Source: Candidatus Sumerlaeota bacterium
Lineage (GTDB): Bacteria > Sumerlaeota > Sumerlaeia > JAPLSS01
Reading direction: 5' to 3'
Length of the DNA: 19,898 bases
Assembly: GCA_026398515.1 (NCBI GenBank)
Contig: JAPLSS010000504.1
Span: forward strand, 1 to 19,898
Shown here: piece by piece, positions 2,871 through 19,898 of the stretch
How positions within the stretch are numbered: position 1 is the first letter of the stretch
Layout: each line of letters opens with the position of its first letter
Made by a program: the position numbers and the translations under genes
The notes under the pieces: generated by a model
The model's database searches: none
What the model saw: only the letters and a program-made list of their open reading frames with translations
Told to the model about the DNA's origin: nothing

Positions 2871-3177
2871 CTTGGATTTCTCACCAGGCACGGTTCAGTT
2901 GCGGTTCCTGGGGGCGCGGGCGTCCTCACTCGCCATGAACCGCGTCGGATTTGGATTGATGGCGGTTGAAGCGATGCGGCGGCGACTCGCGTCGGCGGAC
3001 AGAAGGTTATGCTCAGCCCCGAGTAGTTCTTTCGGACGCTCATCATAAACTCAATCAACCCGCGATGGGCCTAGCCCGCCGCGCCGGTCCGCCAGGGCTC
3101 GCCGGCGTCGCCTTCCTTGTTGAACGACCACGGATGTCCAACGTCCGTCTGTCTCATGCGCGTATCCTTTCCCATTC

Positions 3178-4590
3178 TCATTCCAGCGCGAACCAGCTCA
3201 CCGAATACGGATGCAGCGTTCCTTCGCCCTTGTCGATCGACCGAATGTCGCCCCCGGCGCTGGACAACTTGTCGGACCAATAGGCCTTCTTTAGCGCCGG
3301 TTTCAAAACGGCGCCGTTCATCGTCACACTTCCGATTTGCGCGGCGCTCTTGTCGAGATTCAGGGTAAACAGGCATTTCTGTTTGTTGTCTTCGAAGTAA
3401 TACGCCTTCACCTCCGGGGAACCGCTCACGAGAGCCGGAGCATACTTCGTATTCTTGATATTCGACAGCAGTTGAAAGGCGTAATAGGCGGGGTTGACCC
3501 GATAACCGCTCCGCGGGTCGCGATTGTCATTGAGGCTCAGCGGATCATGGCTGTAGGAGCTTCCGAATTTCATATATTCCAGCGACTGATAGAAGCCCGG
3601 GTGGCGGAAATTATAGTCCGTGACATAGAGCAAGTACCAGCAGGTGTGGATGAACTGCAACATTGTGCCGCCATACGCCGACTTGGCTCCTCCCGGGCTT
3701 CCCAAGTCCACCATTCCCCACTGATCGATGTTCCAGTGGCTCGAATACCGCGCCAGCGCGGCATTATCCTTCTCAAGGCGCGCCATGAAAGCCTTCAATT
3801 CGCCCAGTCCCTCGTCGAACTGTTCGTCAACGCTCGCTCTCGGCTGGACGACGTTGCGACACCATTGATACTGCGTCATCCCATCGATGTCGTCGAGTTT
3901 CGCCACCGTAGCATTCCACTGCGCGGAGTAGGCCGTCGCCTTCGCCGAATCCACCGGCGCGGCCCAGGCGAAGATTTTCACCTCGGGATGCTTCGAGCGG
4001 AGCATGGCGATGTATCTCTTCGCGCGTTCCGCATACTCTTCCGCCGTCATAATGCGGCCCCCTCCCAGCTGCAATTCCACTCCGAGGATCACGGAGGCCA
4101 CCCGCACGCCGGCGCCCTTGATTTCCTTCAAGGCGCGATCGATCTCGTCCACCGTGCCGTGCCACACGTTCGCGTTTACGATGGCGTCGGCGTTCGTGTC
4201 CTTGCACAGGGCGATGAACTTAGTCAGGAAATTCTCCGTGGCCTGCATGCTCGCGGCATGGCGCTGGGAGGCCGCCTGCGCGTATTCCTCCTTGTTGAAG
4301 CAGTATCCCACTCCCTTCGGATCGTAATGCCACCAATAGCTGAGGCTGCCCCCGGGGTATTGGAAATGCGTCACCCCCATGTCCTTCGCCAGCCGGGTGA
4401 ACTCCGGGTCGTGCGTATTCCAGTTCTCCAGATAGTGCTCGGTCATCATGCCAAAGATGGAATTGTTCACCTCGGACATCTGTGTCGTCGATACCGAGAT
4501 GTCGACGCGCCCGTCGGCCGCCGTAAGTGAGGATCCCGTGGAAACGCACAGAGCGCACAACAGCAAAATCGGACGTATCGCCCATTTCAT
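3178..4590 (-). CDS. secreted clan GH-A (TIM-barrel) glycoside hydrolase, family uncertain (GH39/GH51/GH79-like)
   Basis: Sec signal peptide MKWAIRPILLLCALCVSTGSSLTAADG, with RBS GGAAAGGAGG 8 nt upstream of ATG 4590. The ORF-track start at 4638 is further upstream. The FQYPGGSLSYWWHY motif resembles the R(F/Y)PGG motif of clan-A hydrolases. Family assignment is not possible without a search. Confidence 0.65.
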   Translation of the reverse strand: MKWAIRPILLLCALCVSTGSSLTAADGRVDISVSTTQMSEVNNSIFGMMTEHYLENWNTHDPEFTRLAKDMGVTHFQYPGGSLSYWWHYDPKGVGYCFNKEEYAQAASQRHAASMQATENFLTKFIALCKDTNADAIVNANVWHGTVDEIDRALKEIKGAGVRVASVILGVELQLGGGRIMTAEEYAERAKRYIAMLRSKHPEVKIFAWAAPVDSAKATAYSAQWNATVAKLDDIDGMTQYQWCRNVVQPRASVDEQFDEGLGELKAFMARLEKDNAALARYSSHWNIDQWGMVDLGSPGGAKSAYGGTMLQFIHTCWYLLYVTDYNFRHPGFYQSLEYMKFGSSYSHDPLSLNDNRDPRSGYRVNPAYYAFQLLSNIKNTKYAPALVSGSPEVKAYYFEDNKQKCLFTLNLDKSAAQIGSVTMNGAVLKPALKKAYWSDKLSSAGGDIRSIDKGEGTLHPYSVSWFALE

Positions 4591-4715
4591 GGAACAGGCC
4601 TCCTTTCCGGTCTGGCGCCTTGCGGATGCTTGGCCCAATGCTCTCTCCCGCCTCGCTGGTTGCTCTGAAGGGTTGTGAACAGCGGCTTCCGCGACTCGTG
4701 GTCCGCTCCCGTCCG

Positions 4716-11742: not shown

Positions 11743-13695
11743 CTATTGCTCTCTCTTCTCCCCGCGGATGAAGTCGATGCGAATGTCCGCGGGCTTGTCG
11801 GTTTCCACGCTCAAGCGCAGCGCCACGATCTTCTTCTTCCAGCGCGGATTCTCCCCGACGGCGAACACGCAATCGTGGAATTGCCCGTCCGCTTGCAGGG
11901 GAACCGGAACGCTCTTCGGGGGGCTCCACCGCGTCAAGCCTTCGGCCAGCCACCACAGCGTGACCGAGCGCCCCGCGCTTGCCGCCATCCGCACGCGGAC
12001 CGTGGGATAGGCCTTGCCGTTGATCGCGCAGGCTTCGAGGGTCATCGACGGCTCGCGCCCCGTGGTTTTCGTCGCCAGGCAACCGTCCGCAATCGCCGGC
12101 GGCGCCAGGTCCTTGGCGGCCGTCCAGCCGTCGAGCGATTTGTCGAACGAAAAGTCGAGTCGGGTGACGCCGCCCGGCGCGGAGGCCGCCGGTTGCTCGG
12201 GCTCTCTCTGCGGACGCTTCGGCTCGGGCGCCGTCCCCTGCTCCGCCTCCTCGAGGGGGTGTTTGGGCGCCGTGCGGCCCTTGAATCGCGCCATGGCGGC
12301 CTGCAAGTCGATGTTGTCGCCGGTCTCCTTGCGCCACTGGTCGGTCAACGCGCGCAGCTTCGCCTTGATCTCGGCGCAGGCGGGGTCGTCGACGCGGTTG
12401 TTCAATTCGTAGGGATCGTCTTTCACATTATAGAGAAGCCAGTCGCCGTCCTCGATTCCGACGGACCAGGCATAGAGCCACTCCTTAGTCCGCACGGCGC
12501 GCCAGGACGGGATGAATCCCCCGCCGCCTCCGGTCGAGTTGATCGAGAGGAAGACGGATTCCGGCTCCTTATCGCTCTTGCCCGACAACACCTGGGATAG
12601 GTCCACGCCCTGCACGCCGTTGGGGATCGGCGCGCCGCACAGGCCGAGGAGCGTGGGCATCACGTCGACCGACGCGAACAGCGCGTCCTTCTTCTGGCCC
12701 GCGGGGATCTGGTCCGGCCAGCGCAGGAGGAACGGGATGTGCGCCGCCTCCTCCCACGGCCGCTGTTTTAGGCGCTGCCCCTGGGAATACAGCATGTCGC
12801 CATGGTCCGCCGAGAAGCAGACGATCGTCCGCCCGGCGATGCCCAGTTCGTCCAGCGCCTGCGTCATCCGGCCGACCTCGTGGTCCAGGCTGGCGATCAG
12901 GCCATAGTACTGCGCGATGTCGCGGCGCGCCGCGGCCTCCATGGATTTCGGCACGTTCGGTCGCAGCGGGACCTTCGCCGGATCGTAGAGGTCGAATTCC
13001 TCCGGCGGCTTGTAGGGGTTGTGCGGCGGGCCAAACGAGAGCATGAGGAGGAACGGCCGCTCGCGGTTCGCCTTCATGAAGTCGATGGCGAGGTTCGCCT
13101 GGTTCGTCGGCTCGTATCCGTCGACGGGGATCGGCTCCGGCGTGTCGCGGTAATAGTGGGTCTTGTAGTAGTTGTGGCTGCATTCGAGGGCGGCCCAGAA
13201 ATCGAACCCCTGGCGCGCCGGCCCCGGAGGGATGAAACCGCCGTGGCGAATGTCGCCGACCGGCGCGCGCCGGGCGCCTTCGAGGTGCCACTTGCCGATG
13301 TAGCCGGTGGAGTAGCCCTGGTCCCTTAACACCTCGGCGATAGTGATCTCCGACTCCGGCAGTTTGATGTCGTTGGTGATGACGCCGGTCGCGTGGCCGT
13401 AGCGCCCGGTGAGGAGCTGCGCGCGGTACGGCGAGCACAGCGGCGTGCACGAGAAGGCGTTGGTCAGCATCATGCCTTCGGCGGCGAGGCGGTCCAGGTT
13501 CGGCGTCTGCACGTATGGATCGCCCGCGCACCCCATCGCGCAAAAGCGCATCTGGTCGGCGAACACGTAGAGGATATTGGGGCGCTCTTTGGATTCTTCC
13601 GCAAGAAGCGGTGATTGCGGCAGAAATGAGGCCGCGGCCACGGCGCCGGACATGCGGTGGATGAACGCACGTCGGTTCAACGATTCATTGGGCAC
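11743..13695 (-). CDS. TAT-exported Cys-type sulfatase with C-terminal extra domain
   Basis: CTPLCSPYRAQLLTGRY is the sulfatase C-x-P-x-R FGly-modification signature. GKWHLG, SADHGD and the NILYVFADQ N-terminal metal-site motifs are also present. The RRAFIHRMSGAVAAASFL TAT signal implies the GTG 13695 start, which has AAGGAG 8 nt upstream. A Pro/Glu-rich linker and a ~160-aa C-terminal domain of unknown function follow. Confidence 0.85.
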   Translation of the reverse strand: MPNESLNRRAFIHRMSGAVAAASFLPQSPLLAEESKERPNILYVFADQMRFCAMGCAGDPYVQTPNLDRLAAEGMMLTNAFSCTPLCSPYRAQLLTGRYGHATGVITNDIKLPESEITIAEVLRDQGYSTGYIGKWHLEGARRAPVGDIRHGGFIPPGPARQGFDFWAALECSHNYYKTHYYRDTPEPIPVDGYEPTNQANLAIDFMKANRERPFLLMLSFGPPHNPYKPPEEFDLYDPAKVPLRPNVPKSMEAAARRDIAQYYGLIASLDHEVGRMTQALDELGIAGRTIVCFSADHGDMLYSQGQRLKQRPWEEAAHIPFLLRWPDQIPAGQKKDALFASVDVMPTLLGLCGAPIPNGVQGVDLSQVLSGKSDKEPESVFLSINSTGGGGGFIPSWRAVRTKEWLYAWSVGIEDGDWLLYNVKDDPYELNNRVDDPACAEIKAKLRALTDQWRKETGDNIDLQAAMARFKGRTAPKHPLEEAEQGTAPEPKRPQREPEQPAASAPGGVTRLDFSFDKSLDGWTAAKDLAPPAIADGCLATKTTGREPSMTLEACAINGKAYPTVRVRMAASAGRSVTLWWLAEGLTRWSPPKSVPVPLQADGQFHDCVFAVGENPRWKKKIVALRLSVETDKPADIRIDFIRGEKREQ

Positions 13696-13813: not shown

Positions 13814-13899
13814 GCTGATCCTTGTTTAGGCCCGTAGTGCGACGTTCAGGTCGTACGAATACTCGACGACTTGTACGACCCAAAAGTCGCACTCCGAAC

Positions 13900-15165
13900 T
13901 CAACCCGCCACGATTTCGGCCACATCCGCGATGAACAACTGCCGCGCGCCGTGAGGAGCGGCTTGGAAACACACCTTCGTGAAATCGCGGCTCCACGCCG
14001 GATGGCCGTCCACTCGGAACACACTATCCGGATATTTCGACGGGTCAATGGTGGGGATGCCGCAGACGATTCTTTCTTCTTCCGCCGCGAGATCGACCAG
14101 CCGGATTTCCATGCGAGCCCCGTCTTCGCCTTTCTGCCGCTGGTCCGTCACGATGAACCGTCCGCGCGGCTCGATGCTCGGATGGCCCCGGCCTTCGATC
14201 TTCCCGCTCAGGCAGCGCGTCTCCGAGCCGTCAAACCGAAACTGCCAGTAGCGCGACTTCGCGACGCCGTCGGCCTTCATGTGGCGAAGAACGTGAACCC
14301 CGTCGGCATGCCAGTTTGGATGGCCGCCGCTGGCGCCCCAGACGGGCAGGCGCTCGCTCCCCGCCCCGCCCTGCGCGAAGCGGATGTCGCTCCCATCGGG
14401 ATTGAACGTAAAAACCATCGGGTTCACCGTGGCGGGCATCTGCGGATGAAGATAGCGGAGCACTTGCATCACCCGCGTTCCCTGGCGGTTGAACTTCGAA
14501 TGCCAGAAGTAATAGGCGCCGCCGGGGCGAGGCGGGGCAGAGGGAACGCGCGCCGCCACGTCCGCCAAACTGACGAGCAGCGTCTTCTCGTTCGTGCGCA
14601 GGTCGGTTCGCCAGATCCCCTCGTCCGTCGCCGCGCCGGGCGGAAGGCGGCGCGGATTCCCCGGCTCCTTCGGCGGCACGCCGTAGCCGAGTTGCGTCAC
14701 ATCGCGCTGTTCGTGCGGGAAGCCGATCACGCACGACTCGTCCGGCGCGATGCTGTAGAGCGGGCCGGCGAACGCGCGGGTTTCCCGCGTCTCCAGGTCG
14801 ATCCGCACGCACACCGCCGCATCGCCGATCACGTCGTTGGCGTAGAGGCGGCGATCCGTCGCGCCCCAATGCACGTTGGCGCCGGTCTGGAAGCCCCAGC
14901 AGCGCGTCGAGTACACGGACTGAATGGTTTGCTCCTCCAGGTCGATGACGCAGACCTCGGCCGCGTCGCCCAGCACGGGCATGCGGTCTTGGAACGGCAG
15001 GCGCGTGGCCGCCAGATAGCGTTGCGACGGGCTGAACGGCGTGACGTCAAAATAGGTCTGCACGTAGAAGCCGCCCTCGGGCGTAACCTGCATGACCGGG
15101 GCCAGTGTTTCACCTGGGCGGTAGGGCGTCAGGCGAAACGGCCTTTTCTTCCATGCATCGCGCAT
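13900..15165 (-). CDS. cytoplasmic beta-propeller protein, oligogalacturonide-lyase-like (tentative)
   Basis: The 421-aa ORF has an AAAGGA RBS 7 nt before ATG 15165 and no signal peptide. Its overall pattern (N-terminal LTPY..., repeated aromatic/Gly-rich blades, C-terminal HPAWSRDFTKV) recalls the OGL/Pectate_lyase22 beta-propeller family, a weak similarity judged by eye. Confidence 0.5.
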   Translation of the reverse strand: MRDAWKKRPFRLTPYRPGETLAPVMQVTPEGGFYVQTYFDVTPFSPSQRYLAATRLPFQDRMPVLGDAAEVCVIDLEEQTIQSVYSTRCWGFQTGANVHWGATDRRLYANDVIGDAAVCVRIDLETRETRAFAGPLYSIAPDESCVIGFPHEQRDVTQLGYGVPPKEPGNPRRLPPGAATDEGIWRTDLRTNEKTLLVSLADVAARVPSAPPRPGGAYYFWHSKFNRQGTRVMQVLRYLHPQMPATVNPMVFTFNPDGSDIRFAQGGAGSERLPVWGASGGHPNWHADGVHVLRHMKADGVAKSRYWQFRFDGSETRCLSGKIEGRGHPSIEPRGRFIVTDQRQKGEDGARMEIRLVDLAAEEERIVCGIPTIDPSKYPDSVFRVDGHPAWSRDFTKVCFQAAPHGARQLFIADVAEIVAG

Positions 15166-15264
15166 CGTTGTTCCTTTCTCCCGCGGGGTTGTCTTTCGGG
15201 CCTCTTAGAAACCGACCGGAACACTGCGGCTGAATGGCAGAACAGGCTGCGCCCAGATCGCAAT

Positions 15265-15627
15265 TCAGACGCTGCCGTGAGGGGGCGGTTGACGGAGCAG
15301 CGGCTCCAACTGCGCAATCAACACCGGGAGATGAATCGTGGCCAGCGCCCAGATGCGTTCGTGCTTGATCTCGCCGTATTCATGCGCGAGCACGTTGCGC
15401 TGGGCAATGACCTTCCGCCAGGGAATCTCGGAGTGGACATTCTGGAAGCCGCGAGAGACGTTGTGCGCCGCTTCGCCGATGATCTCGATATGTCTTTCCA
15501 CTGCGCCTCTTAGCATGCGATTGCGCAGATACTCGTCAAATGTCCGGCCGGACACGAACTCACACACCGCCCGGGCGGCGTCGAGCATGTCCCAGATATA
15601 CGAGGCGTCGCCGGTTTCAGCCCGCAT
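15265..15627 (-). CDS. hepT: HepT-like (DUF86) nucleotidyltransferase-substrate-binding toxin of a HepT/MntA toxin-antitoxin pair
   Basis: MRAETGDASYIWDMLDAARAVCEFV...RNRMLRGAVERHIEIIGEAAHNVS...RNVLAHEYGEIKHERIWA carries a DUF86/HepT-like Rx4HxY-type motif (RNVLAHEY). It overlaps the upstream mntA by 11 nt. The longer ORF-track start at 15849 would read through mntA in another frame. Confidence 0.75.
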   Translation of the reverse strand: MRAETGDASYIWDMLDAARAVCEFVSGRTFDEYLRNRMLRGAVERHIEIIGEAAHNVSRGFQNVHSEIPWRKVIAQRNVLAHEYGEIKHERIWALATIHLPVLIAQLEPLLRQPPPHGSV

Positions 15628-15922
15628 AAATGACCTCGTGCGTGCGAAGGATCTCGTGACGGCGATAGGGATTGCGCAGGGCGTCCTTCTCCACCAAGTC
15701 CACCGAGCGGCCGATGATTTGCTCCAATTCCTCGCGGATGTCGACAAGGTCCCACAGGCTCCAGGGCGCGTCTGGGGCAAAAGTGACCAAGACGTCGACG
15801 TCGCTGTCCGGACGGAAGTCGTCCCGCAATACCGAGCCAAAAAGCGCAAATTCCGTGATCTTCCACTTGCGGCAGAACTCGGGAATGCGGTCCGTGGGGA
15901 TAGCCAAAGAATATCGGCTCAT
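15617..15922 (-). CDS. mntA: MntA-like minimal nucleotidyltransferase antitoxin
   Basis: GSVLRDDFRPDSDVDVLV is the GS-x(9-10)-DxD nucleotidyltransferase motif. RBS GGAGGG lies 6 nt before ATG 15922. It sits immediately upstream of hepT and overlaps it. Confidence 0.8.
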   Translation of the reverse strand: MSRYSLAIPTDRIPEFCRKWKITEFALFGSVLRDDFRPDSDVDVLVTFAPDAPWSLWDLVDIREELEQIIGRSVDLVEKDALRNPYRRHEILRTHEVIYAG

Positions 15923-16140
15923 TGCGGCCCTCCGAGGTCAGTGATGCGAGTATGGGGGAACAGGCGGCGAACTCGCAATAGAAAGACGCTCGTCGTCTGC
16001 GGAATCGGCCTGCCTTGACCGGGCTTGCGCCGCTGTTGGAATGGATCCTCGAAAACTCCTATACGGCGCTTGGGCCTCTGCATACTATTCCGCCCGGCGA
16101 TTGGCAAGAAATTGACATTTCAACGCAGGAGAATGGCTGT

Positions 16141-17094
16141 ATGCAATCCGGGATGTCTTCCTTCTTAGTGCTCGGCGGGCTTTGGCTGACCCTATCCGCC
16201 GCCGCTGTCCGCGCCGACGACTGGCCCCAGTGGCGCGGGCCGGGCCGCGACGGCGTGTGGAAGGAAACCGGCGTCGTCGAGACGTTCGACAAGCCGCAAC
16301 TCGACCTCGTCTGGCGGCAGCCCATCGGCGGCGGCTATTGCGGCCCGACGGTGGCGCAGGGGCGCCTCTACGTCGCCGACCGCCTCACCACCCCCACCGA
16401 ACAGGAGCGCATCCTGTGCTTCGACGCGATGACGGGGGAGAGGCTGTGGGCTTACGCCTACGAACGTGAGTACCGCAACCTGCAGTACGCGTCGGGCCCG
16501 CGCGCCTCGATCTCCATCGACGACGGGCGCGCCTACGCTCTGGGTTCGTTCGCCGATTTCCATTGCCTCGACGCGGCTAGCGGCAAGGTCCTTTGGGGCA
16601 AGGACATGCTCAAGGAATACCAGGTGCGCGTGCCGCAGTGGGGCATCGCCGCCGCGCCGCTCGTCGAGGGCGACCTGGTCGTCCTGCATGTCGGCGGCTC
16701 GAACGGCGCGTGCCTGGTGGCGTTCGACAAGAAGACCGGCGAGGAACGTTGGCGCGCGCTCAACGACCGCGCCTCGTATTCCGCGCCGATCATCATCGAC
16801 CAGGCGGGCAAGCGGGTTCTCGTCTGCCTGACCGGCGAGCGCGTGGTGGGGCTCGATCTGCAATCCGGGCAACTCGATTGGGAGTGTCCGTTCCCGCCCA
16901 GCCCCAGGCGGGGGCCGATCACCGTCGCCTCGCCCGTTTTTCACAGCGGCTATCTCTTCTTCACCAACTTCTATGAAGGCTCGTTGTTGTTGAAAGTTGT
17001 GCCGGACAAACTGGCGGTTGAGGAGGCTGGAGCACGATGCACTTCATCCAGAACGGCGACAAGGTTTGGCTGTTCACCGAGCGCGGCGAGCTGA
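16141..17094 (+). CDS. secreted PQQ-like beta-propeller repeat protein (BamB-like); reading frame breaks near 17000-17040
   Basis: Signal peptide MQSGMSSFLVLGGLWLTLSAAAVRA is followed by DDWPQWRGPGRDGV and repeated GxLYV/LxALDAxTGxxLW blades. The frame-1 ORF ends at 17094 with an implausible tail. The final blade continues in another frame (17037-17411). Confidence 0.7.
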   Translation: MQSGMSSFLVLGGLWLTLSAAAVRADDWPQWRGPGRDGVWKETGVVETFDKPQLDLVWRQPIGGGYCGPTVAQGRLYVADRLTTPTEQERILCFDAMTGERLWAYAYEREYRNLQYASGPRASISIDDGRAYALGSFADFHCLDAASGKVLWGKDMLKEYQVRVPQWGIAAAPLVEGDLVVLHVGGSNGACLVAFDKKTGEERWRALNDRASYSAPIIIDQAGKRVLVCLTGERVVGLDLQSGQLDWECPFPPSPRRGPITVASPVFHSGYLFFTNFYEGSLLLKVVPDKLAVEEAGARCTSSRTATRFGCSPSAAS

Positions 17095-17411
17095 TGATCA
17101 CCCGCCTCTCGCCGCAAGGGGTGGAGGTGATCAGCCGCGCCCAGTTGATCAAACCCATGGTGAGCCAGTTGCCCCGGCGCGGCGGGGTCTGCTGGGCCCA
17201 CCCCGCCTTCGCCAATCGCCACGTTTACGCGCGCAACGACGAGGAGTTGGTCTGCGCGGATCTGACGGCGAAGTGTGCGAGTGGAACAGAATGTGTCAAC
17301 GCCGCCGCATGGCGTGGAGGGAAAGATGACGCATCCCGTATTTCTCAGACGCGTTGTTCTGAAGAACTACAAGAGCATTGCGAAATGCTCGGTCGCTTTG
17401 AATCCCCTTAA
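17037..17411 (+). pseudogene. displaced C-terminal blade of the PQQ beta-propeller gene (frameshift or sequencing error), over-running into the next gene
   Basis: The frame-0 translation DKVWLFTERGELMITRLSPQG...VCWAHPAFANRHVYARNDEELVCADL is the canonical last PQQ blade. That frame opens only after TGA 17019-17021, and no stop follows until 17411, 86 nt inside the downstream ATPase gene. Confidence 0.5.
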
Positions 17412-18543
17412 CTTCCTCGTGGGCCCCAATGGCGCGGGGAAAAGCAATTTCCTCGAAGCGCTGCGACTGGTTGCGGACGCGTTGAACACGTCTCTCGACC
17501 ACGCGTTGCGTGAACGAGGCGGGATTCAAGAGGTGCGTCGGCGTTCGTCTGGCCATCCAACGCATTTCGGCATTCGGCTGGAGTTCACGTTGCGGGACGA
17601 CGTCCAGGGACATTACGCCTTTCGCGTCGGCGCGAAGGAGAAAGGCGGATTCGAGGTCCAGGAGGAAGAGTGCCGCATAGAACCGGATTGGGGGAGCGCC
17701 TCGTTCTTCAAGGTCGAGTCCGGCGAGGTGAAGGATTCCAGCGCTCAGATATTGCCACCTGCCGCCGATGACCGCCTGTATCTGGTTGCTGCCGCGGGCT
17801 TACCCGAGTTTCGGCCTCTGTACGACGCCCTTTCGCACATGGGGTTCTACAACCTAAGCCCCGATGCGATTCGCGAGTTGCAGCCTCCCGATGCGGGTGA
17901 AACACTGAGTCGCGATGGCGGCAACTTGGCCAGTGTGCTCTCGCTCATGGAACGAGAGAACAAGGAGGCGCGCAATAGAGTCGTGGAGTTCTTGTCCGTC
18001 GTCGTTCCCGGCATTGTGGGGATCGAAACGAAGCATATCGCCAAGAAGGAAACCATCGAATTTCGGCAGAAGGTCGGCGGCAGCGCCAGCCCGTGGCGCT
18101 TCATGGCCGAGAACATGTCCGACGGGACATTGCGCGCGCTCGGCGTTCTGGCGGCATTGTTCCAGTCGGCGAACGGCGGAGCAAAGCGGGTGCCTCTTGT
18201 CGGAATCGAGGAACCCGAAGTGGCGGTCCACCCGGGAGCCGCGGGAGTTCTGCGCGACGCCCTGCGCGTAGCGTCCGCCAACACTCAAGTCTTGGTCACC
18301 AGCCACAGCCCCGATTTGCTGGATGACAAATCAATCGGCGATGAGTGCATCCTCGGAGTATCCAGCATCAACGGAGAGACCAAGATCGGACGACTGAATG
18401 ACGCGGAGCGATCGCTCATCCGTGATCGGCTATTCACGGCCGGCGAACTTCTGCGTTCAAGCGAACTTGGGCCCAATATCGAGCAGATCAACCAGATTCC
18501 CGCTCGACAACTCGAGCTTTTCGGCGAGGCCAGCCGTGAATGA
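17326..18543 (+). CDS. ABC/SMC-RecF-clade ATPase (AAA_15/AAA_21-like, OLD/AriA/GajA-type ATPase module)
   Basis: RBS GGAGGG lies 5 nt before ATG 17326. The N-terminus FLRRVVLKNYKSIAKCSVALNPLNFLVGPNGAGKSNFLEAL contains Walker A GPNGAGKS. Also present are an ABC-signature-like MSDGTLRAL, Walker B/D-loop VPLVGIEEPEVAVHP and H-loop VLVTSHSP. GC is visibly lower than in flanking genes. Confidence 0.8.
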   Translation: MTHPVFLRRVVLKNYKSIAKCSVALNPLNFLVGPNGAGKSNFLEALRLVADALNTSLDHALRERGGIQEVRRRSSGHPTHFGIRLEFTLRDDVQGHYAFRVGAKEKGGFEVQEEECRIEPDWGSASFFKVESGEVKDSSAQILPPAADDRLYLVAAAGLPEFRPLYDALSHMGFYNLSPDAIRELQPPDAGETLSRDGGNLASVLSLMERENKEARNRVVEFLSVVVPGIVGIETKHIAKKETIEFRQKVGGSASPWRFMAENMSDGTLRALGVLAALFQSANGGAKRVPLVGIEEPEVAVHPGAAGVLRDALRVASANTQVLVTSHSPDLLDDKSIGDECILGVSSINGETKIGRLNDAERSLIRDRLFTAGELLRSSELGPNIEQINQIPARQLELFGEASRE

Positions 18544-19144
18544 GATTCGACTGGCGGCCATTGTGGAAGGCCGTGCGGACGCCATAGCCCTTCCTCTTTT
18601 GACTCGGCGGATCGCCGGCGTGGTGGATCCTGCCCTGAGCATTCGGGTCCATCCCATTCTTCGAGTGCCGGCCTCGCGTCTCCTTAAAGAGGGGGAACTG
18701 GAACGCAGAATCGAGCAGGCGGCCCGCAATCTGGAAGGAAGAGGCGGCATCCTGATCTTGCTGGATTGCGACTGGAAAGACGGTTGTCCCGCCATCGATG
18801 GCCCGCGCTTGTTGGAACGAGCCCGCGCCGAGCGGCCGGACATACCCATCACTGTCGTGTTGGCCAAGAAGGAATTCGAGGCGTGGTTCATCGCCGCCGC
18901 TGCTTCACTGAGAGGGAAGAGGGAGTTGGCGGAGGATTTGACTCCTCCTTCGGCGCCTGAGGAGATCCGGGGCGCGAAGGAGTGGCTGTCGGCTCGCATG
19001 CCAAGAACACGACCCTGTGCCGAGACCATCGACCAGCCTGCCTTGACAGCGCAGTTCGATATGGACGCCGCGCGCCGAGGCGCGGACTCCTTTGACAAGT
19101 GCTATCGCGAGATCGTCCAGCTCTTGACGACGCTGCAGGGCTGA
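18536..19144 (+). CDS. DUF4276-like small protein with TOPRIM-like acidic motifs (putative nuclease partner of the ATPase)
   Basis: GTG 18536 overlaps the ATPase stop as GTGAATGA, indicating coupling. The protein is MNEIRLAAIVEGRADAIALPLL...ILILLDCDWKD...KKEFEAWFIAA. It has an N-terminal conserved Glu (IVEG), a DxD (LLDCD) and an E.EAW motif, a pattern I associate with DUF4276/TOPRIM-like domains. Confidence 0.6.
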   Translation: MNEIRLAAIVEGRADAIALPLLTRRIAGVVDPALSIRVHPILRVPASRLLKEGELERRIEQAARNLEGRGGILILLDCDWKDGCPAIDGPRLLERARAERPDIPITVVLAKKEFEAWFIAAAASLRGKRELAEDLTPPSAPEEIRGAKEWLSARMPRTRPCAETIDQPALTAQFDMDAARRGADSFDKCYREIVQLLTTLQG

Positions 19145-19237: not shown

Positions 19238-19898
19238 TCATGCCTTCTTCACCGGCTCGTTGATCCGCTCATCGATTTCCTGGCGCGCCTGGGCGATCAT
19301 CGCGTCGATTGCGATTGCGCCTTGATCTCCCAGTTGCCGCCGCCGCAGCGCGACCTGGCCGCTGGCCGCTTCGTTCTTGCCGACGACGAGCATCAGCGGG
19401 ATCTTGCGCATCTCGGCCTCGCGGATCTTCTTGCCGATCTTCTCGTCCGACGGGTCGATTTCGGCGCGGATGCCGGCGTCGTTCAGTTGTTGCCACACCT
19501 GCTCCGCGTATTCGCGCTGGTCGGCGGAAATCGGCAGGACGATGGCCTGCACGGGCGCCAGCCACAGCGGGAAGTCGCCCGCCCAGTGCTCCGTCAGGAT
19601 TCCCAGGAAGCGCTCGATGGAGCCGAAGATCGCCCGGTGGATCATCACCGGACGCCGCCGCGAGCAGTCGGGCGCGATGTAAGTCAGGTCGAACCGTTCG
19701 GGCATCGAGAAGTCGACTTGGATCGTCCCGCACTGCCACGTGCGCTTCAGGCAGTCCTGGATGTGGAAATCGATCTTGGGGCCGTAGAACGCGCCGTCGC
19801 CGGGGTTGATCTTGAACTTCACACCCATCTCCACGAGCGACTCTTGCAGCGCCGACGTGGCCTTCTCCCAGATCTCGTCGGACCCCATGCTCTTCTCG
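19238..19898 (-). CDS. thrS: threonine--tRNA ligase, C-terminal part (gene continues beyond the window end)
   Basis: The sequence covers the class-II core, RTWQCGTIQVDFSMPERFDLTYIAPD...RPVMIHRAIFGSIERFLGILTEHWAGDFPLWLAP, and the anticodon-binding domain, AIVLPISADQREYAEQV...IRAEIDPSDEKIGKKIREAEMRKIPLMLVVGKNE. This is a highly conserved ThrRS C-terminus. Confidence 0.9.
   Translation of the reverse strand, partial: EKSMGSDEIWEKATSALQESLVEMGVKFKINPGDGAFYGPKIDFHIQDCLKRTWQCGTIQVDFSMPERFDLTYIAPDCSRRRPVMIHRAIFGSIERFLGILTEHWAGDFPLWLAPVQAIVLPISADQREYAEQVWQQLNDAGIRAEIDPSDEKIGKKIREAEMRKIPLMLVVGKNEAASGQVALRRRQLGDQGAIAIDAMIAQARQEIDERINEPVKKA

Follow-up and report, generated by a model that had tools for sequence, protein, structure and literature searches.

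A stand-alone HEC-01 pair in a Candidatus Sumerlaeota genome: an ABC ATPase and a DUF4276-family TOPRIM-like protein as a candidate anti-phage module

Pairs of an ATP-binding cassette (ABC) ATPase and a TOPRIM protein recur among anti-phage systems, and the PARIS paper grouped MADS3-4 and AbiL with them while listing DUF4276 as an effector domain. In MADS, mad3 and mad4 are both required for defence, and cells tolerate deletion of the methylase only when mad2 or mad3 is removed with it. DUF4276 is also borne by some Menshen effectors, and the Menshen study describes it as an effector domain of the Toprim superfamily. The closest described system to the locus presented here is HEC-01 (Hma-embedded candidate 01) of PADLOC-DB v2, an ABC ATPase with a TOPRIM partner (Payne et al., bioRxiv 10.1101/2024.01.29.577857), which was defined through ‘guilt by embedding’ in Hma (helicase-methylase-ATPase) systems (10.1101/2024.01.29.577857) and, in a survey of cold-seep genomes, has since been counted as one of the 12 most abundant system types (PMC12881386). 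We analysed a 19,898-nt contig (JAPLSS010000504.1) from a metagenome-assembled genome (MAG) of Candidatus Sumerlaeota; the whole contig is the window referred to below. Near its right-hand end lie two overlapping genes, here gene 1 and gene 2. We consider it probable that they form a stand-alone member of the candidate anti-phage system HEC-01, in which an ATPase sensor would, by analogy with better known systems, control a metal-dependent nuclease.

The module is laid out as follows.

17316..17320, forward strand: Shine-Dalgarno-like GGAGG, 5 nt 5' of the gene 1 ATG, read from the sequence
17326..18543, forward strand: gene 1 (HEC-01A), ABC ATPase of the AAA_15/AAA_21 (OLD/Gabija/Septu-like) group, ATG to TGA, 405 aa
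18526-18529, forward strand: GAGG ahead of gene 2, 6 nt 5' of its GTG, read from the sequence
18536..18543, forward strand: 8-nt overlap of the two genes, GTGAATGA, the gene 2 start lying over the gene 1 stop (18541-18543)
18536..19144, forward strand: gene 2 (HEC-01B), DUF4276-family TOPRIM-like putative metal-dependent nuclease, GTG to TGA, 202 aa
19178-19196, forward strand: terminator-like GC-rich hairpin with a T-rich tail, 8 pairs of which 7 are GC, a pattern match from a consensus scan only

We place the start of gene 2 at GTG 18536 because the ATG at 18540, inside GTGAATGA, is out of the gene 2 frame. The HEC-01B profile alignment begins at residue 1 of this translation, in agreement with that start, and the family consensus MxxVRIAAIVEG runs collinear with the N-terminus, MNEIRLAAIVEG. 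Both products are identical to NCBI entries from the same contig, named ‘AAA family ATPase [Candidatus Sumerlaeota bacterium]’ and ‘DUF4276 family protein’. The genes are co-transcribed and probably translationally coupled. No sigma-70-like promoter was found around the module, and the hairpin sits in the 93-nt convergent spacer between gene 2 and thrS.

Both proteins matched the HEC-01 models over essentially their full length: gene 1 matched HEC-01A (PDLC04178) at E = 1.6e-164 and 545.7 bits, with residues 1-402 on profile positions 1-397 of 399, and gene 2 matched HEC-01B (PDLC04196) at E = 2.3e-62 and 208.5 bits, with residues 1-198 on positions 1-193 of 197. Weaker PADLOC matches of gene 1 were to mad3 (2.6e-28), AriA (1.7e-27) and AbiLi (4.4e-20), and also to GajA and Old, the Old model matching in its ATPase part only. 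In Pfam, gene 1 matched AAA_21 at 1.1e-26 over the full 304-position profile, AAA_15 at 6.4e-19, and SMC_N. It fell far under every cut-off of the NCBIfam equivalogs for MAD3, RecF, PtuA, the Eco8 effector, Rad50 and SMC. Its nucleotide-binding motifs are given below; conservation here and for gene 2 was computed across 66 orthologous pairs.

17422..17445, forward strand: Walker A (P-loop) GPNGAGKS, residues 33-40; G33, N35, G36, G38, K39 and S40 at least 97% conserved
18115..18135, forward strand: ABC signature-like MSDGTLR, residues 264-270; M264 to R270 at least 97% conserved
18196..18219, forward strand: Walker B LVGIEEPE, residues 291-298 (IEEPE core 294-298), followed by H302; G293, E295, E296, P297, E298 and H302 at least 97% conserved
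18298..18312, forward strand: H-loop TSHSP, residues 325-329; H327, S328 and P329 at least 97% conserved

The AlphaFold2 (AF2) model of gene 1 has a predicted local distance difference test score (pLDDT) of 80 and is without a long coiled coil. A Foldseek search of the Protein Data Bank (PDB) with this model gave its best matches, with E = 1e-13 to 1e-11 and template modelling (TM) scores of 0.44-0.53, to PtuA, to GajA and to the heads of SMC and Rad50, the PtuA structures coming from Septu and from retron Ec78/Eco7 complexes. The solved proteins closest to it in sequence are Thermus OLD and GajA, in a match confined to the P-loop region. Gene 1 belongs with OLD, GajA, AriA and PtuA in the AAA_15/21 group of ABC ATPases, and all of its nucleotide-binding motifs are intact.

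For gene 2 the match to Pfam DUF4276 (PF14103) covers residues 72-188 at 27.4 bits (E = 4.6e-6) and just misses the gathering score of 30.2. A DUF4276 match at E <= 1 was obtained in all 130 of the family representatives scanned, gene 2 included (best 2.3e-18), and a precomputed collection annotation and NCBI both label this exact protein DUF4276. There is a weak cross-match to the PADLOC mad4 model (E = 0.0068). Neither a DUF4435 nor an AriB match was found in Pfam and PADLOC, and PHROGs and NCBIfam gave no match; five of the 130 representatives showed weak RloB matches, gene 2 itself none. Three conserved acidic motifs stand out.

18560..18580, forward strand: IVEGRAD, residues 9-15, with a TOPRIM-type Glu right after strand 1; E11 in 57 of the 66 orthologues (8 Gly, 1 Asp), G12 in 66
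18764..18772, forward strand: DCD, residues 77-79, a DxD at the end of strand 3; D77 in 66 of 66, D79 in 65
18872..18889, forward strand: EFEAWF, residues 113-118, the second acidic cluster, after strand 4; E113 in 65 of 66, E115, W117 and F118 in 66

The TOPRIM core is a four-stranded parallel alpha/beta fold with the sheet order 2-1-3-4. In the AF2 model of gene 2 (pLDDT 83.9, predicted TM score (pTM) 0.81) the elements follow one another as beta1 (2-10), a helix (18-30), beta2 (34-43), a helix (54-66), beta3 (71-77), a helix (85-99) and beta4 (105-110), with a helical C-terminal half after beta4. E11 follows beta1, D77-C-D79 closes beta3, and E113 and E115 follow beta4. This placement of E11, the DxD and E113/E115 corresponds to the TOPRIM arrangement of the literature (Aravind, Leipe and Koonin 1998). 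The Menshen study restates an arrangement that matches it, and HEC-01B has been aligned structurally to the metal site of BpOLD, revealing a conserved OLD-like metal site (10.1101/2024.01.29.577857). The orthologues with Gly at the position of E11 (IVGG; loci L006, L016, L017, L018, L023, L045, L047 and L052) keep D77, D79, E113 and E115, and as a rule they have another acidic residue four positions further along (GxGE/D).

Gene 1 and gene 2 are a unit and are inherited together. The gene 2 family is large: scoring of 4228 word-sharing candidates gave 1372 clusters at 90% identity with E <= 0.001, an exhaustive search gave about 2900 at 50% identity, and at least 435 GTDB species genomes contain relatives. 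Linkage was examined in the 80 best loci, which span about 20 phyla, including Planctomycetota, Verrucomicrobiota, Elusimicrobiota, Chloroflexota, Poribacteria, Desulfobacterota-type MAGs, Latescibacterota, Spirochaetota, Acidobacteriota and others. In every one of these loci with room for it, a gene 1 orthologue (51-73% identity) lies directly upstream of gene 2. The exceptions are six loci in which gene 2 lies no more than about 220 nt from a contig end, a locus that retains just the 3' end of the ATPase gene (L066), and four degraded copies. In three of the latter the ATPase gene has an internal deletion (L040) or is truncated (L070 and L077) and the DUF4276 gene is intact. In the fourth (L060, 2851-6064) an insertion sequence (IS) of the IS21 family, about 3.2 kb long and encoding IstA (rve and Mu-transposase C-terminal domains) and IstB, interrupts the gene 1 orthologue. 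Of 65 intact pairs, 38 are joined by a 4-nt overlap of the ATGA type, and most others have a gap of at most 3 nt or a short overlap. Pairwise identities of the ATPase and of the DUF4276 protein are correlated (r = 0.75), a value reached in none of 2000 Mantel permutations. One of the 150 top family representatives (P0260, 609 aa) is a natural fusion, an AAA_21/AAA_15 ATPase with DUF4276 at residues 414-606, which is an OLD-like architecture within the HEC-01 family. The refuting condition named in the preliminary description discussed below, a pair that is not found together in other genomes, is thus clearly contradicted.

The first gene on each side was called in 65 loci with a naive longest-ORF (open reading frame) caller, and PADLOC neighbours were summarized for the 25 most frequent families, every one of them a helicase model; because the census was limited in this way, the fraction of loci beside defence genes is a lower bound. 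An HmaA-type SNF2/PLD helicase is the direct neighbour in at least 8 of the 65. In at least 6, the direct upstream neighbour is the gene of an N6/N4 methyltransferase of about 1000 aa, ending a few nt past the ATPase start (L002/L083, 6280-8794; L005, 3132-6071; L047, L052, L029 and L018). In L083 this gene is split into a 583-aa methyltransferase and a 238-aa protein without a Pfam match. These loci resemble three- or four-gene operons of methyltransferase, ATPase and TOPRIM protein, possibly of an Hma- or MADS-like kind. About 50 of the 65 loci have neither neighbour. In at least seven Poribacteria genomes the pair follows a PhyH dioxygenase gene, and in six of those it is also followed by a sulfatase gene (the chromosomal loci L057, L059, L067, L072, L075, L078 and L080); intergenic spacing is wider in these genomes, the ends of the tblastn matches being about 40-60 nt apart. 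This shared context suggests stable vertical inheritance in the lineage and not a mobile island.

A preliminary description of this DNA, drawn up from its letters, had proposed a gene pair overlapping at 18536-18543, and both reading frames and the GTGAATGA overlap are where it put them. It had read gene 1 as an ABC ATPase of SMC/RecF-clade type from GPNGAGKS, MSDGTLR, IEEPE and TSHSP, all of which are present and at least 97% conserved in a protein of 405 aa. Its motifs for gene 2, IVEG (9-12), DCD (77-79) and EFEAWF (113-118), are likewise conserved across the 66 pairs, and E11, D77xD79 and E113/E115 make up the TOPRIM acidic constellation it saw in a small protein. The choice of DUF4276 rather than DUF4435 agrees with the match at 27.4 bits (gathering score 30.2) and with the missing DUF4435 match. 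The kinds of check it proposed gave AAA_21 and AAA_15 in Pfam for gene 1 (1.1e-26 and 6.4e-19), full-length HEC-01A and HEC-01B matches in PADLOC, and an ATPase directly upstream in every roomy locus of the 80; gene 1 is not a RecF, RecN or SbcC orthologue, its RecF match of 34.7 bits against a cut-off of 172 being restricted to the Walker A region. Its statement that no published system combines an ATPase with DUF4276 is outdated, because HEC-01 (2024), MADS Mad3-Mad4 and DUF4276-bearing Menshen effectors had already been published.

We envisage the following course of events. As in OLD, Gabija, PARIS and Septu, the ATPase would bind the TOPRIM protein and serve as an infection sensor or switch. 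A phage cue might then trigger a nucleotide-dependent rearrangement by which the TOPRIM nuclease, dependent on Mg2+ or Mn2+, would be activated or released. The nuclease could cut DNA, as OLD and Gabija do, or RNA/tRNA, as PARIS AriB does, and such cleavage would stop phage replication or the infected cell. The link to defence draws on the HmaA and methyltransferase neighbours, the degraded and IS21-disrupted copies, the requirement for mad3 and mad4 in MADS, and a 2026 report that a different HEC-01 cluster protected Escherichia coli B from at least one of T4, T5 and T7 (PMC12881386). A bolder proposition would set HEC-01 of this subfamily apart as a fifth, autonomous class within OLD-like ATPase-TOPRIM immunity, whose TOPRIM effector (~200 aa) would be the smallest known; the ATPase would sequester the DUF4276 protein and let it go on a phage cue, and the freed protein would cleave RNA (tRNA or rRNA), like AriB and RNase M5, and not DNA. 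We regard this as rather doubtful; if it were true, the ~12% of orthologues with Gly for Glu would point to a modified catalytic centre.

It should be considered that several observations weigh against a defensive nuclease pair. E. coli MG1655 deltaRM carrying the first HEC-01 representative to be tested remained unprotected from a BASEL subset and from classic coliphages (10.1101/2024.01.29.577857), and the report of protection comes without fold-reduction or mutants (PMC12881386). The canonical TOPRIM Glu is replaced by Gly in 8 of the 66 gene 2 orthologues. Foldseek with the gene 2 model found nothing in the PDB at E <= 0.001; the sub-threshold list consists of generic flavodoxin/Rossmann-like folds, with PARIS (8ux9) at an insignificant E of 0.07. 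The gene 2 family profile matched only CheY among PDB sequences (E = 0.088), and hhalign to P2 Old was not significant with a narrow profile (A1) or with broad ones (A4 and one of 143 sequences), at a probability below 1%. The non-significant stretches coincide with LVEGKTE of P2 Old for gene 2 IVEGRAD and with ILADCDF for DCD, a lead only. Gene 2 is thus graded a likely TOPRIM-like nuclease and not a proven one, because our own independent tests, by fold and by sequence, go no further than a suggestion. Ordinary metabolic genes flank the pair directly in most loci, and relatives are scarce on mobile replicons: none was found on IMG/VR viral contigs, one weak match of 29% identity among INPHARED phages, and three Streptomyces megaplasmids only in PLSDB.

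The foremost competitor of the stand-alone HEC-01 reading holds that the pair is no autonomous system and serves as the nuclease/ATPase effector cassette within a larger Hma- or MADS-like one tied to methylation; here it would be an orphan, bereft of helicase and methyltransferase partners and inert or only partly functional. HEC-01 was discovered inside Hma systems, and the negative assay, in which a representative on its own was not protective (10.1101/2024.01.29.577857), sustains this view; so do the 8 of 65 loci adjoining HmaA, the 6 of 65 in which the methyltransferase overlaps the ATPase start, and the fact that the homologous mad3 and mad4 act within eight-gene MADS, where the methylase can be lost only along with mad2 or mad3. 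It is opposed by the stand-alone majority, about 50 of 65 loci being without such neighbours and amid metabolic genes, the Poribacteria context included, and by the positive assay, in which an HEC-01 cluster cloned alone was reported protective (PMC12881386). Both window genes are also intact with every catalytic motif, and gene 1 reaches 100 bits on the MAD3 equivalog against a cut-off of 420. We judge an orphaned cassette unlikely. A selfish addiction module of the toxin-antitoxin kind, in which a TOPRIM toxin would be curbed by the ATPase and serve post-segregational killing and not defence, seems more improbable still. The tight two-gene operon with overlapping genes, the patchy spread over phyla, the HepT/MntA toxin-antitoxin pair close by, the degraded and IS-disrupted copies and the AAA_21 Pfam label, which names the AbiEii toxin, would all suit it. 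However, addiction modules thrive on plasmids and phages, where this family is near-absent (three Streptomyces megaplasmids, one weak phage match, none in IMG/VR); the gene order and an ATPase of 405 aa with all its catalytic motifs are the mark of sensor ATPases and not of labile antitoxins; and natural fusions are hard to square with the logic of differential stability.

Two further explanations have next to no probability in our estimate. That gene 1 is a housekeeping repair or chromosome ABC ATPase (RecF/RecN/SbcC/SMC-like), with gene 2 unrelated to it, might be thought from its weak SMC_N, RecF, Rad50 and SMC model matches and its structural resemblance to SMC and Rad50 heads. These matches lie mainly on Walker A, with RecF at 34.7 bits against a cut-off of 172 and SMC at 18 against 729. 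The model has no long coiled coil, the flanks differ between most genomes, the nearest relatives come from unrelated phyla, and the model scores together with the strict linkage to the DUF4276 gene refute the idea for practical purposes. Equally, a divergent PARIS (AriA/AriB) or AbiL (AbiLi/AbiLii) would explain the gene 1 matches to AriA (1.7e-27) and AbiLi (4.4e-20), all three being split pairs of an ATPase and a TOPRIM-like protein, but gene 2 matches neither AriB/DUF4435 nor RloB (5 of 130 relatives giving weak RloB matches) and at 202 aa contrasts with the 35-kDa AriB, and the HEC-01 models fit better by more than 130 orders of magnitude in E-value. With the partner family missing, PARIS and AbiL membership was rejected.

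The remainder of the window supplies the genomic setting of the pair, and the features that bear on it are listed here.

3178-4638, reverse strand, and 3337-4530, forward strand: long ORFs on both strands, no Pfam or PADLOC match
11743-13695, reverse strand: sulfatase
13900-15165, reverse strand: 421-aa ORF with host-like GC at third codon positions (GC3) of 0.82, no Pfam or PADLOC match; a longer ORF opposite it (13822-15513) is probably spurious
15265-15922, reverse strand: HepT/MntA (HEPN RNase / nucleotidyltransferase) toxin-antitoxin pair
16015-17094, forward strand: PQQ/BamB-like beta-propeller gene with an apparent frameshift near 17037-17094
19238-19888, reverse strand: C-terminal part of thrS, convergent with gene 2 and 93 nt from it

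The pair was probably acquired horizontally by the Sumerlaeota genome, between the PQQ-propeller gene and thrS; its lower GC3 and its taxonomically scattered nearest relatives fit such a foreign origin. The closest relatives are from Phycisphaerae, Elusimicrobia and deltaproteobacterial MAGs. GC3 is 0.70 in the pair, 0.81-0.91 in neighbouring housekeeping genes and about 0.76 in HepT/MntA, and its overall GC of 0.605, compared with 0.632 across the window, falls at the 6th percentile of windows of that size. The ‘visibly lower GC’ of the preliminary description is small, and clearer in GC3. The same description set the module beside HepT/MntA, from which the PQQ beta-propeller gene in fact separates it, and had it abut the 3' end of thrS, which is a convergent neighbour at a distance of 93 nt. 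Of its horizontally acquired defence islet, codon composition and scattered relatives fit the acquisition; the islet itself is thin, with one toxin-antitoxin pair one gene away. No tRNA gene, integrase or convincing flanking direct or inverted repeats were found around the module, and the PADLOC scan of window ORFs gave nothing beyond the pair except MntA (15617-15922), which matched PDC-S09, a single-gene candidate of untested type, at 9.3e-28. The HepT ORF as listed (194 aa, TTG start) is probably too long; its Pfam domain begins at residue 88, which implies a true start overlapping the end of MntA. The PQQ ORF ends in out-of-family sequence, and a typical C-terminal blade (…VCWAHPAFANRHVYARNDEELVCADL…) is found in ORF 17037-17411, which runs 86 nt into gene 1; an error of assembly, decay into a pseudogene or a scar left when the module inserted may account for this frameshift. 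The lowest GC of the window, 0.57-0.59 at 3001-4500, may mark a further foreign or fast-evolving gene.

The Sumerlaeota pair is a further member of a catalogued candidate system in a stand-alone context, and creates no new category. HEC-01 is common; experimental support for it is limited to two plaque screens, one negative and one positive with little documentation. The present locus contributes a clean and intact copy, not embedded in an Hma system, from a phylum that has received little study. Strict synteny, the invariant D77 and E115, the near-invariant D79 and E113, the variable E11 and the natural fusion provide concrete mutants and constructs for mechanistic work, and the mechanistic question is that of the whole HEC-01 family and not peculiar to this locus.

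Set against the described systems, the pair agrees with HEC-01 in gene order, the ABC ATPase coming first and the small TOPRIM-like protein second, in matching both models at full length, and in having its genes adjacent on the same strand with an 8-nt overlap. It differs in lying outside an Hma system, flanked by a PQQ propeller and thrS, embedding being a criterion of discovery and not of detection. MADS Mad3-Mad4 of Pseudomonas aeruginosa likewise sets an AAA_15/21 ABC ATPase beside a DUF4276/TOPRIM protein. However, MADS has eight genes, includes a methyltransferase and cannot do without Mad6-8, whereas no mad genes were seen in the window ORFs scanned and gene 1, at 100 bits, stays far below the cut-off of 420 set for the MAD3 equivalog (NF047739). 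MADS membership was rejected on the missing accessory genes and the MAD3 score, and more generally it is because a partner family or accessory genes are missing that we exclude PARIS, AbiL and MADS. In Septu and retron PtuA-PtuB we again find two genes, an ABC ATPase and a small nuclease, and PtuA is the closest solved structure to gene 1 (Foldseek E about 1e-13, TM about 0.47); in contrast, the PtuB effector is an HNH nuclease and not a TOPRIM protein, and gene 1 scores 25 bits on the NCBIfam PtuA model against a cut-off of 500. OLD and Gabija GajA carry ATPase and TOPRIM in one polypeptide of ~580 aa, where the Sumerlaeota pair has two proteins and fusions are rare in its family, and the GajB-like UvrD helicase of Gabija was not seen among the window genes scanned. 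AriB of PARIS belongs to DUF4435 and is ~35 kDa, whereas gene 2 is a DUF4276 protein of 202 aa, and the hexameric scaffold, the Ocr trigger and tRNA cleavage are features of PARIS. Both are split, two-gene combinations of an ATPase and a TOPRIM protein, and an ATPase scaffold or sensor that restrains a small TOPRIM nuclease is likely the logic they share.

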